28,412 nucleotides of DNA from Promethearchaeota archaeon Loki_b31 (GTDB lineage Archaea > Asgardarchaeota > Lokiarchaeia > Sigyniarchaeales > SOKP01), in contig NJBI01000045.1 in the NCBI GenBank assembly GCA_005222975.1, positions 1 to 28,412 of the forward strand, given 5' to 3'. Under the pieces are notes generated by a model. That model was not told the origin of the DNA. It made no database searches and saw nothing but the letters and a program-made list of their open reading frames with translations. Positions 13,805 to 18,315 of the stretch are shown here, piece by piece. The position numbers and the translations under genes are program-made. Positions within the stretch are counted from its first letter, which is position 1. Each line of letters begins with the position of its first letter.

Positions 13805-15043
13805 ATGGTTGATTTTATCATGTCATTTGAACAAGACGCTAAGAGAAATTTTCCTAAATGGCCGATATATGACGACAAAGAGATAAATGCCTTAAATAAC
13901 GTAATAAAATCTGGCGACTGGTGGTGTGGTGCTCCAGGTACCCACCAAGGTGAGAATGTTTGGGCGTTTCAAGTAGAATTTGCTCGATTTCAAGAAGCAA
14001 AGTATTGCGTAGCAGTATGTAATGGAACGGTAGCCATAGAAGCGGCACTAATGGGATTTAATATTGGTTTAGGTGATGAAGTTATTGTTTCAGATTACAC
14101 TTTTGTTGCATCAGCATCAGCAATAATAGCTACAAACGCAGTTCCAGTATTCTGCGATATAAATCCAGAAACCCTTGTTATGGATGTAAATAAAATCGAG
14201 AGTCTCATCACTCAAAGAACTAAAGCAATTATACCTGTTCATTTAGGTGGTAATCCCGTCGAAATGGATAAATTAACGGAAATTTCTTCAAAAAACAACC
14301 TATATGTTATTGAAGATTGCGCACACGCACACGGTTCTAGATTTAAAGGAAAAAGACTGGGTAACTGGGGAGACGCAGGAGCATTTAGTTTCCAAGCTTC
14401 GAAAGTCTTAACAAGTGGTGAAGGTGGGGCAATAATTTGTAATTCCAAGGAATTAGCAGATAATATTTATTCTTACACTGATTGTGGTAGGAAAAAAAAC
14501 GCTTACTTTTACAAACATTTTAGTTATGGTACAAATTATAGGATGACTGAGTATCAGGCAGCAGTGCTTAGAACCCAGTTAGAAAAATTCCCATCTCAAC
14601 ATAAACTAAGAAACGAGAATGCTAATTACTTAATGAATAAGTTAAATGAGATTGATGGGATCCAAACTATGAAACCAACCCCCGGTACAACAGAACTTGG
14701 GTGGTATGTTTTTCCAATAGTATTTGAACCAGAAAAATTTAGTGGTCTTAACAAGGTGGAATTTTATAAAAAGTTGAATAGAAATGGCATACCTACTTGC
14801 GATCTATATCCTCCTTTACACAGTCTAAATTGTTTTAGAGAAGTTAAATTAAAAAAAGGAATTGACTATTCTAAAGCTAATTGGGGAGGTGAAAAAAGCA
14901 ATGATAAATATTTTCCCGTTATATCTGATATATATTCAAGAAGTATTCAACTTCCTCATGAAGTCCTTTTAGCAACTAAGGATGAATTAGATTTTATAGC
15001 CGAAATTATGTATTCTATTAAAGAAAAAGTCTCAAATCTGTGA
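13805..15043 (+). CDS. DegT/DnrJ/EryC1/StrS PLP-dependent aminotransferase; last ~49 codons probably supplied by an inserted element
   Basis: NGT.A, YTFVAS, IIPVHLGG, IEDCAHAHG, FSFQASK (PLP Lys) ...GEGG, NYRMTE.QAA. The start may be the ATG at 13820. Confidence 0.93.
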   Translation: MVDFIMSFEQDAKRNFPKWPIYDDKEINALNNVIKSGDWWCGAPGTHQGENVWAFQVEFARFQEAKYCVAVCNGTVAIEAALMGFNIGLGDEVIVSDYTFVASASAIIATNAVPVFCDINPETLVMDVNKIESLITQRTKAIIPVHLGGNPVEMDKLTEISSKNNLYVIEDCAHAHGSRFKGKRLGNWGDAGAFSFQASKVLTSGEGGAIICNSKELADNIYSYTDCGRKKNAYFYKHFSYGTNYRMTEYQAAVLRTQLEKFPSQHKLRNENANYLMNKLNEIDGIQTMKPTPGTTELGWYVFPIVFEPEKFSGLNKVEFYKKLNRNGIPTCDLYPPLHSLNCFREVKLKKGIDYSKANWGGEKSNDKYFPVISDIYSRSIQLPHEVLLATKDELDFIAEIMYSIKEKVSNL

Positions 15044-15076
15044 TTTTAACTTTTTTACATTTTTTCATTTTTTATT
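15044..15076 (+). terminator. Oligo-T archaeal terminator-like tract after the aminotransferase stop
   Basis: ttttaacttttttacattttttcattttttatt immediately follows the TGA at 15043. Confidence 0.5.
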
Positions 15077-15221: not shown

Positions 15222-18179
15222 ATTAGTGAATTTAATAACAATTACAGTTCTGAATTTAGTAATGAAGTTGAGAAAGAGATAGATAACGATTCTTCAAAAG
15301 AAAATTTAAAAGAAGAGAGAGAAGAGGATGTTCTTAATGAAAATGATGAAATTGCGCAAGATTTTTTCGAAGAAAAGGAAGAAAGTAAATGGGGTTGCAT
15401 CGATTGGAGCGAAGATATAACTAACGATCGAGAAACAACTAAATGGGACGAGATTAATTGGAGTGAAGATACATCTGAAGTACTAGAAAAAACTGAGGAA
15501 GTTATTAACAACAATTCAACTGAAGAAGATATAAAAGAAGATTATCACGAAAATATTGAATCTGAATCATTAGGTACAATTTTGTTTAGTGAAAAAGCAG
15601 AGAAAAACGAACAAACTTATGAACTGCATCAAGAAGGATTAACTGAAATTGCTTATGAAAAAAGTGAATTTGAAGAACTTGAAATTGCAGAATTAGATGA
15701 ATATCTTGATAAATACGAACAGTTAGAACAGGAAGGTTATTTCAAGGATTTGGAAGAAAAATGGTCAGAAATTGAAGAATTGTATGATTGGGTAAGAGAA
15801 GTCTTCGGAGAACCGGGAAAAGAAATAGAATCTTCAAAAAATAGTGAAATGATACACGAAGTTGAGCATTTAAATAATGATAATGAGGAATTAACGAAAG
15901 AGAACGAAATGGAGACATCGAAAATCTGTGAAGAAGCTAGTGAATTGGGAAACGACAATAAAAAAGATATTAAACATGAAAAAAAATTAGAACTTGAGAG
16001 GGAACAGCCAGAAGTTCTTGAATTGTATGAAAATTATCTAGAACAATTAGAGGAAGAAATACGTTCAAATTATATCAAGGATTCTGAAAAATCAGAAATA
16101 GATCAGGGATATGAAAATGCAGAAACCCTTCACGAACTCGAGAAAGAAAATCATAAACAAGAATATACGCAGCTATTTAAAGAAAAAATTTACCAAGAAT
16201 TTTTGCATGAGATAAGTGAAAATGAGGATGAAACTATTAGTGTAAATTACGGAGAAGAGGTGAACACTGAGGATTATGAATTAATAGTTGAGTTATCACA
16301 AGTAGATTCATCAGAACAAGAAATTTCTGAAGAAATTGATGAAGAAGAGAAATTTGAGTGTCTTATACAGGAATATAAACGACAAACTGGTAAAAACTCC
16401 ATATTTGCGGGTGAACAGACAAAAGGTTTTAGCTATTGGTTAGAAAAACAAGAAAAGTTGGATCTAGAGATATCAGAAGAATTAACACAAGAAAATGAAG
16501 AGGAGTGGGCACAAATACTTAAATCATGGATAGAAGAATCTAATGAGGAAAATTTCAAACATGAAATTAAATCTGAGTTAAAAAAAGTTTTTGGATGTTT
16601 TAATGTTTTTGAGAGAATGATAAAAAAATTTATGAAATTATATCAAAAGTCCCAACTTGAAAAGCTTTCCGATAATGAATTAAATTCTTTGACATATATC
16701 ACAGAAAACCTGAAGGAAATAACGCCAATACAATTAAAATTGATACTAGCTATTCGAGCTTTTAAAGATTATTTCAATGATCAATACAATTATAATTTAT
16801 GGAACAAAATAATTATTAAACAGGTACAAAGTAGATTTTTTCGGCATATTTCATGTCTCTATCAAACCTCAGATTTTCTTCTGACAGATAATGATTTAGC
16901 TGAGAATCGAGATAATGCTTGGTTAAAAATATTAAAATATGTTCATCTCACTCTTGGAAGTAGAGAAGAATTAGTATCTTTCTATAGAAAATTCTTATCT
17001 ATAAAGGAGAATATATTTTTGGAAAAAAAGGCCAATCATCAATTTATATCGACATTGGAATTGATTAATTTATTAATAAATGAACTTGAAAAAGTTATTC
17101 CCTATAATCTCTTGTCAAAAAAAAATTTTGGTAGTCCTTTAATACTTTCAGATAAAACTTTAAGTTCCTTACTCGGAAAAGGCTATAAACATATCTTTAA
17201 ACAAAGGAAATATGCTAAAGATCCTTTATATATTATTGCTTTTGATCTGTTATTGGAGTGGTCTATTTGGCTAAGAGCCCGGTTAGGTCGGAGTAGTTAT
17301 AGATCTCTTGAATTAATTAGTACATATATGTTGAATTATAGAAAAAATTTGCCAATTTCTAGGTCAAATGATATGCAGCTATATTTACATCATCCACATA
17401 TACATGAAGATTATTTTAGACAAATTAATACTAAAGAAAAAGCTTACTTTCTTGGTTTTTTTTTTGCTGACGGGACAATTATAGGTAAAAGGAGGATTAG
17501 TTTATACTTATCAGCTAATTTAAAATATATTAAGTCTAATCAACAATTAATATTTAGGTTTTGTAAAGCTATTGGATTAAATCCAAATTACGTGGACTAT
17601 GTACATAGATTAACAAAAGATAAAAAAGGAATCCGTTATAATCATTTTATAAAAATTTCTTTCTCTAGTGAAACTATGGCAAAAGATTTGTATGATTTAG
17701 GTTTTAAAGGTAGTAAGTCATTGGGAACTCAATGGCCCACTACAGATCTTGGTGATATATTATTAGATCTGGTATTTCTTCTTGGATTTTATGATGGAGA
17801 AGCTGATGTTGGAAGAACTAGAATTACTTCAGCAAGTAAAAAATTTTTAGATCAAATTAAAGATAAGTTCAATATACCTTATAATGTAAATCCACATATT
17901 CATAGAAAAAGTTACACATTGTCTTTATCAGCTCAATTAGTGAATCTAATGCAATTAGTATATCCTCATAGTTTAACTCTTAAAAGAAAAAAATTTAGAG
18001 CCAGAAATACAGATTTGGTCTTAAAAACCATTTTAACAAAAAGACTATTACAAACCTTAATAAAGACAATTCCCGAAAAAGAAATAGCTAAATTATTTAA
18101 TGTAGAATCCTTTAGGATTCATGAATTATTAAATAAATGGAAAATTATAGGCGATCAACACCAAGAATCCCTAAAATAA
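15222..18179 (+). CDS. Large acidic-N-terminus protein with a C-terminal double-motif LAGLIDADG endonuclease domain and terminal HTH (~985 aa)
   Basis: EKAYFLGFFFADG (~17440-17474) and FLLGFYDGEA (~17775-17804); C-terminal EKEIAKLFNVESFRIHELLNKWKI is HTH-like. The frame is open from 15207, upstream of the track's TTG at 15582, with the same E/D-rich composition. Confidence 0.8.
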   Translation: MSEFNNNYSSEFSNEVEKEIDNDSSKENLKEEREEDVLNENDEIAQDFFEEKEESKWGCIDWSEDITNDRETTKWDEINWSEDTSEVLEKTEEVINNNSTEEDIKEDYHENIESESLGTILFSEKAEKNEQTYELHQEGLTEIAYEKSEFEELEIAELDEYLDKYEQLEQEGYFKDLEEKWSEIEELYDWVREVFGEPGKEIESSKNSEMIHEVEHLNNDNEELTKENEMETSKICEEASELGNDNKKDIKHEKKLELEREQPEVLELYENYLEQLEEEIRSNYIKDSEKSEIDQGYENAETLHELEKENHKQEYTQLFKEKIYQEFLHEISENEDETISVNYGEEVNTEDYELIVELSQVDSSEQEISEEIDEEEKFECLIQEYKRQTGKNSIFAGEQTKGFSYWLEKQEKLDLEISEELTQENEEEWAQILKSWIEESNEENFKHEIKSELKKVFGCFNVFERMIKKFMKLYQKSQLEKLSDNELNSLTYITENLKEITPIQLKLILAIRAFKDYFNDQYNYNLWNKIIIKQVQSRFFRHISCLYQTSDFLLTDNDLAENRDNAWLKILKYVHLTLGSREELVSFYRKFLSIKENIFLEKKANHQFISTLELINLLINELEKVIPYNLLSKKNFGSPLILSDKTLSSLLGKGYKHIFKQRKYAKDPLYIIAFDLLLEWSIWLRARLGRSSYRSLELISTYMLNYRKNLPISRSNDMQLYLHHPHIHEDYFRQINTKEKAYFLGFFFADGTIIGKRRISLYLSANLKYIKSNQQLIFRFCKAIGLNPNYVDYVHRLTKDKKGIRYNHFIKISFSSETMAKDLYDLGFKGSKSLGTQWPTTDLGDILLDLVFLLGFYDGEADVGRTRITSASKKFLDQIKDKFNIPYNVNPHIHRKSYTLSLSAQLVNLMQLVYPHSLTLKRKKFRARNTDLVLKTILTKRLLQTLIKTIPEKEIAKLFNVESFRIHELLNKWKIIGDQHQESLK
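15387..15473 (+). repeat. Two-copy 54-nt-period repeat encoding KWxxIxWSED
   Basis: aaatggggttgcatcgattggagcgaagata (15387) versus aaatgggacgagattaattggagtgaagata (15441). Confidence 0.7.
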
Positions 18180-18315
18180 AAGCGATGATAAAAATTTCCC
18201 CGTTGTTTCAAGTATTTATTCAAGAAGCGTAGAATTTCCACAAGAAATGTTATTATCTTCCAGAGAAAAGTTAGATGGCGTAGTAGAATTTATAAAATCT
18301 TTAAAAAAAGAATAA
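18178..18315 (+). pseudogene. Orphaned (displaced) copy of the aminotransferase 3' end, 45 codons plus TAA
   Basis: KSDDKNFPVVSSIYSRSVEFPQEMLLSSREKLDGVVEFIKSLKKE* aligns ungapped to KSNDKYFPVISDIYSRSIQLPHEVLLATKDELDFIAEIMYSIKEK (22/45 identical by hand count). Confidence 0.9.

Follow-up and report, generated by a model that had tools for sequence, protein, structure and literature searches.

The 3' end of a DegT/DnrJ/EryC1 aminotransferase gene (degT) of Promethearchaeota archaeon Loki_b31 is present twice, and between the two copies lies a long open reading frame (ORF) with a LAGLIDADG homing-endonuclease module. The end that now completes degT is foreign, and the native end has been displaced downstream. 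Very probably this is a free-standing LAGLIDADG homing-endonuclease cassette at the degT 3' end, in neither an intron nor an intein. The stretch analyzed (the window, 28,412 nucleotides [nt]) is one whole contig (C5, 28.4 kb) of a metagenome-assembled genome of 3.5 Mb. Throughout, G labels denote genomes (G000 is the window's own), C labels contigs of G000, and L labels loci or contigs. An initial annotation, made from the letters of the window without database searches, had proposed a non-splicing homing element that keeps the host gene functional and whose recoded 3' end would destroy its own cut site, in an Asgard-like chromosome. Empty alleles in relatives and the pattern across the endonuclease family support the homing element. 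The Asgard-like host was right, as database homologues of the module are named Lokiarchaeota, Thorarchaeota or Promethearchaeota.

The two copies of the degT end

The features of the locus, in window coordinates, are:

13805-15043, plus strand: degT, DegT/DnrJ/EryC1 aminotransferase, 412 amino acids (aa) (Pfam DegT_DnrJ_EryC1, E 3e-100)
14797-15043, plus strand: donor-derived 3' tract of degT (nucleotide alignment with G017, G021 and G005)
14797-14893, plus strand: flank, probably co-converted (breakpoint alignment)
14894-15043, plus strand: copy A, the replacement end (duplication edge)
15044-15206, plus strand: AT-rich spacer, 16% GC (sequence, GC content)
15207-17021, plus strand: acidic N-terminal arm (open frame, alignment with the paralogue on C13)
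15582-18179, plus strand: inserted 865-aa ORF, stop codon TAA at 18177-18179
17022-18179, plus strand: LAGLIDADG module (P0003, residues 481-865, 385 aa) with a C-terminal helical tail resembling a helix-turn-helix (HTH)
17442-17474, plus strand: LAGLIDADG motif 1, ..FFFADG
17775-17813, plus strand: LAGLIDADG motif 2, ..FYDGEA..
18178-18315, plus strand: copy B, the displaced native degT 3' end, 45 codons and a stop (match to G017/G021)
18329-19372, minus strand: Gfo/Idh/MocA oxidoreductase gene (gfo), convergent, the native right-hand neighbor (Pfam)

The duplication is confirmed to be real. The frame of copy B opens within the TAA of the 865-aa ORF, in the +1 frame relative to that ORF, and aligns without gaps to degT residues 364-408, with 22 of 45 residues identical. 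The match between the copies has an E value of 3e-13 by blastp in a flank-versus-flank search, and of 4e-9 by HMMER against the whole genome. Nucleotide similarity sets in abruptly at AAAAGC (14894 in copy A, 18178 in copy B), and 24 of the first 27 nt are identical. The copy B stop codon (18313-18315) lies 13 nt from that of gfo. The ungapped 45-codon copy, its sharp edge and its distance from gfo had all been reported in the initial annotation; blastp, nucleotide alignment and the coordinates bear them out. Copy B has no start codon and, judged by its sequence, is an untranslated remnant.

Which of the two copies is native? degT was searched for in 41 relatives, and 19 loci of the same genus were inspected. 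In 15 of these the site is empty, with degT and gfo convergent and 21-40 nt apart, and a further empty allele is found on the metagenome contig L151. The other four have a 114-aa gene between degT and gfo (G016 and G023), that gene together with a methyltransferase gene (G005), or a LAGLIDADG gene (G006). The closest relatives are G021 and G017, whose degT core is 94-95% identical to that of the window in protein and whose gfo, which adjoins degT, is 96% identical in aa to the window gfo. Copy B matches their C-termini at 42 (G021) and 40 (G017) of 45 residues, whereas copy A matches them at only 24-25 of 45. In nucleotides copy B is 95-97% identical to the G017 and G021 ends, as close as the degT core (95%), and its position relative to gfo is that of the native end in empty alleles. 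Against the 20 orthologues examined, copy A scores just 21-28/45, which makes it an outlier to every one of them. It is clear from this comparison that copy B is native and copy A foreign. The initial annotation had expected empty alleles to end like the downstream copy, and they do. Between the two copies nucleotide identity is 68%, synonymous difference (pS) is 0.58, which is near saturation, and nonsynonymous difference (pN) is 0.26. Therefore, both evolved as coding sequence in separate lineages. The first 90 nt of copy A are 91% identical to G005. This partial match is the best one, and no donor with the spacer or the element was found among 42 genomes of the genus.

The foreign DNA begins upstream of the duplication. 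The window tracks G017 nearly base for base (about 95% nucleotide identity to G017/G021) up to ~14797. Past this point it is G005-like for ~160 nt and then like nothing sampled. This puts the left edge of the foreign tract ~95 nt upstream of the duplication edge, as expected for co-conversion during recombinational repair. The right junction is at 18177/18178, in an A-run common to the end of the ORF and the native ..GAGAAAAGC.. sequence. Taken together, the two breakpoints delimit foreign DNA at ~14797-18177. The element had initially been placed at 14894-18315; the duplication edge at 14894 stands, but the foreign DNA does not start there. In comparison with G017 and G021, degT is a hybrid of a recipient-type 5' part and a foreign 3' part, with its frame intact.

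Oligo-T tracts end archaeal transcription and TATA boxes mark archaeal promoters. Three T6 tracts follow the degT stop codon (15051-15056, 15060-15065 and 15068-15073), and a TTTAAATA box follows these at 15075-15082. The tracts are likely to be the degT terminator and the box is likely to belong to the promoter region of the inserted gene. A scan with bacterial models, which says little about an archaeon, predicted no terminator, and promoter-like sites were fewer than the mean for shuffled sequence. Besides the 865-aa ORF there is no ORF of at least 100 aa in the interval, and neither the ORF calls nor Pfam gave an integrase, transposase or intein signature in the insert. What had been said of its content (a T-tract, a single endonuclease gene and none of these motifs) therefore holds. 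The ORF is in a frame separate from degT, behind the degT stop and the T-tracts. An intein does not fit this arrangement: degT stops at 15041-15043, a noncoding spacer of 163 nt follows, and there is no Hint or intein Pfam match.

The conserved gene between degT and gfo in other genomes deserves a separate mention. It encodes 114-117 aa and is present in G005, G006, G016 and G023 (its region is L034 2762-3896, L035 208-552 and L025 ~2800-3150), and in G005 a 249-aa methyltransferase gene accompanies it. Its occurrence in four genomes makes the degT-gfo spacer a recurrent insertion spot.

The inserted ORF and its relatives

The inserted ORF had been called an endonuclease gene. This is upheld for its LAGLIDADG module but not for the whole ORF, of which residues 1-480 are an acidic arm with 121 D/E residues. 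The frame is open for 990 codons from 15207, and the first ATG, GTG or TTG is at 15582. Upstream of 15582 it is still 40% identical in aa to a paralogue on C13, which has ~50 more N-terminal codons. The arm has no Pfam match and no usable ESM-Atlas match (template modeling [TM] scores below 0.35). One module of it (aa 293-428, ~16458-16865) recurs in many giant ORFs of G000. This acidic, repeat-bearing module family is found in giant ORFs of 671-2001 codons on C1, C13, C35, C41, C54, C66, C75 and C96, some of which end in LAGLIDADG-like domains (e.g., C96 944-4678).

The assignment of the module itself draws on both sequence and predicted structure. Pfam family PF14528 (LAGLIDADG_3) matches the module alone at 23.9 bits (cut-off 22.5) and the whole ORF at 21.7 bits. 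This is marginal for the window copy, and the same family matches 12 of 15 family members with a best E value of 1.8e-7. An alignment of 15 sequences shows conservation of the acidic residue at position 8 of each motif, with D nearly invariant and E/D kept. An AlphaFold2 model of the module has a predicted local distance difference test (pLDDT) score of 84 and a predicted TM score (pTM) of 0.71. With this model Foldseek gave 43 matches with an E value of 1e-3 or lower. Every one of the top matches listed is a LAGLIDADG protein (TM ~0.5 by target), and they include the TliVMA intein endonuclease, WhiA, the bI3 maturase, I-DmoI, I-Tsp061I and I-SceI. Sequence searches of the PDB (phmmer, hmmsearch) gave no LAGLIDADG chain, so that the fold search alone found them. 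The module is thus predicted to be a single-chain two-motif LAGLIDADG enzyme with a pseudo-dimeric alpha-beta-beta-alpha-beta-beta-alpha fold and both acidic residues in place. Its pN/pS is 0.37 against L145, a contig from another sample, and the frames stay open in both.

There are seven paralogues of the module in G000, and homologues in 22 of the 42 genus genomes. The initial annotation had suggested that such homologues might be flanked by duplicated ends of neighboring genes. Indeed, this architecture was found at pflX, lsrF, MaoC and AdoHcy hydrolase, and weakly at degT of G006. The endonuclease gene at pflX (C18) runs antisense. In comparison with the closest relatives, 35-38 of 40 residues are identical in the remnant and 22-25 of 40 in the resident end, and the endonuclease gene is absent from all 16 relatives' loci examined. 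An lsrF-type aldolase gene, on C99 and in G019, has its end duplicated beside an endonuclease gene, with a remnant tail of the G017/G021/G005 type and a resident tail of the G050 type. The remnant of a MaoC dehydratase gene (L083) is frameshifted and 85 aa long (E 9e-22), and that of an S-adenosylhomocysteine (AdoHcy) hydrolase gene (L082) lies beyond the endonuclease gene and one cargo gene. In G006 the closest homologue (53% identity) is antisense beside degT, and on its far side there is a weak 28-32-nt match to a degT end of the G016/G023 type. No remnant was found at the Thorarchaeal AdoHcy locus L081. A small tree of 13 proteins recovers clades for degT, lsrF and AdoHcy at 99-100% support, and lineages that each keep to one target are a usual feature of homing endonucleases.

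Other irregularities were encountered at or near these genes. In G005, degT (L034 3990-5198) has an A-like end for ~90 nt and is ordinary after that, with no endonuclease gene there; in pflX of the same genome (L088) a resident-type ..RRPTSQEMQEV.. stretch gives way to an unrelated tail, again without an endonuclease gene. Both are possible scars of past invasions. In five genomes of the genus lsrF is interrupted, through stops or a frameshift, by a 30-32-nt insert between ..GVD and MGRNIFQ.. (C99 ~11790-11830, minus strand; also G050, G016, G019 and G022, at loci L116 and L141-L143). The insert has a 10-bp inverted repeat, and lsrF of other genomes is uninterrupted. Two of the five genomes have an endonuclease gene downstream. 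Two readings suggest themselves for the insert, a mini-intron and a small palindromic element. Finally, an eIF2-gamma-like gene on C32 (6014-7602, minus strand) is seemingly split beside a LAGLIDADG gene (7714-9186, minus strand), with 121 aa ending in the G1 motif (..GHVDHG), a 165-nt gap and then 352 aa.

Proposed history and alternatives

The initial annotation had made its case depend on read support for the junctions; at the level of assembled contigs, support comes from other samples (drawn from JGI, ENA and Logan). Four of these assemblies (L145, L146, L148 and L149) extend across the two junctions with 96-99.7% identity, and most of the element is also present on L147 and on L150. L145 runs from degT past gfo. 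Between the window and L145, pS is 0.047 in the element and 0.126 in the adjacent host genes (Fisher p 5e-6). Because its pS is below that of the host, the element appears younger than the host split, which suggests that it spread after the two host populations had separated. The five short contigs L146-L150 start at 14750-15014 and stop at 18249-18488, near the borders of the foreign tract. These ends may mark assembly-graph branching where occupied and empty alleles coexist.

What series of events would account for this structure most economically? In an empty degT allele, the endonuclease would cut both strands within the conserved ..NWGGEKS.. coding stretch. The left end would then invade a donor allele and copy ~95 nt of donor degT, and copying would continue through the donor degT 3' end with its stop, the T-tract terminator, the spacer and the endonuclease gene. 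This tract would be joined to the right break end at 18177/18178 by the short A-run homology or, alternatively, through recombination with a donor in which the A-endonuclease-B structure was already present. The hybrid degT would keep working with a foreign C-terminus, leaving the native 45 codons stranded and untranslated downstream. We infer the activity of the enzyme, the position of its cut and the route of repair from sequence comparison. Near the boundary copy A differs from the empty site at 6 of 35 nt. This difference could confer immunity, and the occupied allele would then be protected from cutting by what sets copy A apart.

A number of observations do not sit easily with a homing cassette. 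The start codon of the C13 paralogue is missing from the inserted ORF and the acidic arm evolves nearly neutrally (pN/pS 0.74 against L145), which together make expression of the enzyme uncertain. The stronger AT bias of the insert could partly account for its lower pS. Among the sampled genomes the exact co-oriented element at degT was not found outside one species-level cluster, nor was a donor with an identical copy A, the G005 match extending over 90 nt only. The closest degT homologues (G006 and L078-L080) are in the opposite orientation, and no remnant was found in L078-L080, where the endonuclease gene lies between gfo and degT. With this orientation, and with a remnant that is absent or weak, the event in the window is not a simple copy of those arrangements. 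In addition, a genus-wide screen found flank duplication at E below 1e-6 in just 3 of 29 homologue loci, against a background of 4% in 250 random ORFs. The screen is poorly specific (7% of the random ORFs have some flank match at E below 1e-3, mostly owing to tandem paralogues), and family-level enrichment rests on the individually inspected cases rather than on its rate. Three ORFs of the random control (C67 27187-28902, C59 8154-9215 and C49 7630-8835) are flanked by peptide duplications of 16-25 aa that are 88-94% identical and lie at gene starts. Duplication of gene ends in this way may accompany further kinds of insertion.

The main rival to a homing cassette is an insertion that arrived once by illegitimate recombination. 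Its LAGLIDADG protein, joined to an acidic arm of the type seen in giant proteins of the genus, would no longer home and would now be either decaying or serving another role such as DNA binding. The lost start codon and the near-neutral arm would be explained by this, and many homologues in the genus are fused to long arms without flank duplication. WhiA, a domesticated LAGLIDADG and HTH protein, is also among the fold matches. However, the ORF in the window has retained both catalytic acidic residues, its LAGLIDADG part has a low pN/pS (0.37), a 990-codon frame is kept open in DNA of 29% GC, the low pS of the element suggests later spread, and the clades are target-specific. On balance a fossil or domesticated insertion is rather unlikely.

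The remaining alternatives are contradicted by the data. It is very unlikely that copy B was left by the deletion of another aminotransferase paralogue in tandem, to which the endonuclease gene would be an unrelated neighbor. DegT paralogues do exist (38-41% identity, 11-13 kb off or on other contigs), but copy B shares 87-93% identity with the orthologous C-termini in G017 and G021 and stands exactly at the position of the native end relative to gfo. Moreover, a second degT was not found between degT and gfo in any relative; this tandem arrangement, which the initial annotation had named as fatal to its proposal, was looked for at the degT-gfo locus and rejected. An element mobilized by an integrase or transposase, with the duplication as an att-type repeat, is just as hard to credit. 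Such elements do restore the 3' ends of their target genes as a matter of general knowledge, but no ORF of the 3.3-kb insert is that of an integrase or a transposase, the two copies are 68% identical rather than identical att sites, and the left breakpoint, within homologous sequence ~95 nt from the duplication edge, fits recombinational repair. Perhaps, then, the structure is a chimera of two strain alleles produced by assembly, or a very large spliced intron that rejoins 14893 to 18178? The genome is metagenome-assembled with 6% contamination, the join would be in frame, and short inserts interrupt lsrF in the genus. Nevertheless, both junctions recur in L145, L146, L148 and L149 from other samples, copies as different as A and B would not collapse in assembly, and copy A brings its own stop and T-tracts, all of which makes either version exceedingly improbable. 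The giant intron was also rejected on folding: junction cofolding gave -14.5 kcal/mol against -13.0 +/- 2.6 kcal/mol for shuffled sequence, with no pairing like a bulge-helix-bulge (BHB).

A separate oddity is found on the other side of degT. The arginyl-tRNA synthetase (ArgRS) ORF (window 8531-13657, minus strand) encodes 1708 aa, of which ~1140 aa are an in-frame N-terminal extension with no Pfam match and no other copy in G000. ArgRS is of normal length in G005, G006, G017, G021 and L151, where it starts ~100 nt from degT, and L151 has ~400 nt in place of ~3.9 kb (window 9895-13769). The window ArgRS is 58-65% identical to that of relatives, versus ~95% for degT and gfo. An N-terminal duplication was looked for on this side of degT and not found. 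There may be a second insertion here, or a gene-start replacement.

Significance and comparison with known systems

Does the cassette at degT exemplify something broader? An active, diversified family of target-specific free-standing LAGLIDADG endonucleases that home into the 3' ends of housekeeping and metabolic genes in Loki- and Thorarchaeal chromosomes is a proposal for which the case is evenly poised. If true, the targets would be degT, pflX, lsrF, MaoC and AdoHcy hydrolase, each receiving a substitute gene end and sometimes cargo genes or acidic arms. Such a family would drive the exchange of gene-end alleles between species, and it would be a chromosomal counterpart of the mitochondrial mobile ORFs (mORFs) in the archaeal lineage closest to eukaryotes. 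The degT locus is one of a family affecting at least five protein genes, in both orientations, in Loki- and Thorarchaeota. Mosaic gene ends in Asgard genomes, and local horizontal exchange between them, would find a concrete mechanism here, and the family would be a source of natural nucleases with long targets that the empty alleles reveal. It is also a warning for annotation, in that short 'orphan' frames beside LAGLIDADG genes may be displaced native gene ends. No description of gene-end-replacing endonuclease cassettes in archaeal chromosomes was found in the searchable literature, and gene-end replacement by free-standing homing endonucleases is documented mainly in fungal mitochondria.

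Free-standing LAGLIDADG-type genes are known from archaeal chromosomes. Examples are the LAGLIDADG genes of Haloferax glycosylation islands (PMC5867893) and the homing-endonuclease homologue of the Heimdallarchaeal element HeimM2 (PMC8813620), for which gene conversion or site-specific integration has been proposed. The Haloferax genes, like the degT cassette, sit among sugar-modification genes. Unlike at degT, their flanks are reported to have no similarity to coding genes (PMC5867893), and neither report describes gene-end replacement or a remnant (PMC5867893, PMC8813620).

Intronless homing by free-standing endonucleases has been described for SegF and MobE of T4-like phages (PMC2790892; Belle et al., 2002, cited in PMC5867893). 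As at degT, the endonuclease gene lies outside introns and inteins. The enzyme cuts a neighboring gene of genomes without the endonuclease gene, and flanking markers are co-converted during repair, a pattern that the breakpoint ~95 nt from the insert fits. However, the phage enzymes are of the GIY-YIG or HNH type, intergenic and without a duplicated gene end, and they act during co-infection.

In its predicted single-chain two-motif fold the module resembles I-DmoI, I-Tsp061I, the PI-type intein endonucleases and WhiA. The C-terminal helical tail of the model, putatively DNA-binding, is a further likeness to WhiA, whereas the retained acidic residues are a difference. I-DmoI, I-Tsp061I and the PI-type enzymes are set in an rRNA intron or an intein, unlike the degT cassette, and sequence similarity to them is below phmmer/hmmsearch detection.

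The closest parallel is with the mORFs of fungal mitochondria, reported from atp6 of Allomyces macrogynus, from atp6, atp9, cox2 and nad3 of Glomus sp., from atp9 of Rhizopus and from cox2 of Mortierella (PMC3630166 and the Allomyces work cited there). The degT cassette has the same make-up: an endonuclease ORF in the 3' region of a gene, a foreign end in frame and a displaced native end. The mORFs are free-standing LAGLIDADG ORFs (also GIY-YIG) in the 3' part of a protein gene, with a diverged foreign C-terminus in frame and the native C-terminus displaced downstream, near-identical to that of a relative (PMC3630166). There are differences. The mORFs occupy an organelle genome and the degT cassette an archaeal chromosome, in which ordinary metabolic genes are targeted; a stop, T-tracts and a spacer set the ORF off from degT, while some mORFs, as that account has it, are in phase; relatives occur in both orientations, and the window copy has a 480-aa acidic arm. 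The Allomyces mORF has biochemical proof, and the degT cassette is known from sequence and predicted structure. Nevertheless, the pattern of divergence is the same. Identity to the relative in Glomus is 91-98% for the native copies and 64-81% for the inserted ones (PMC3630166). For degT, compared with its closest relatives, the values are 95-97% for the native copy and ~70% for the inserted one.

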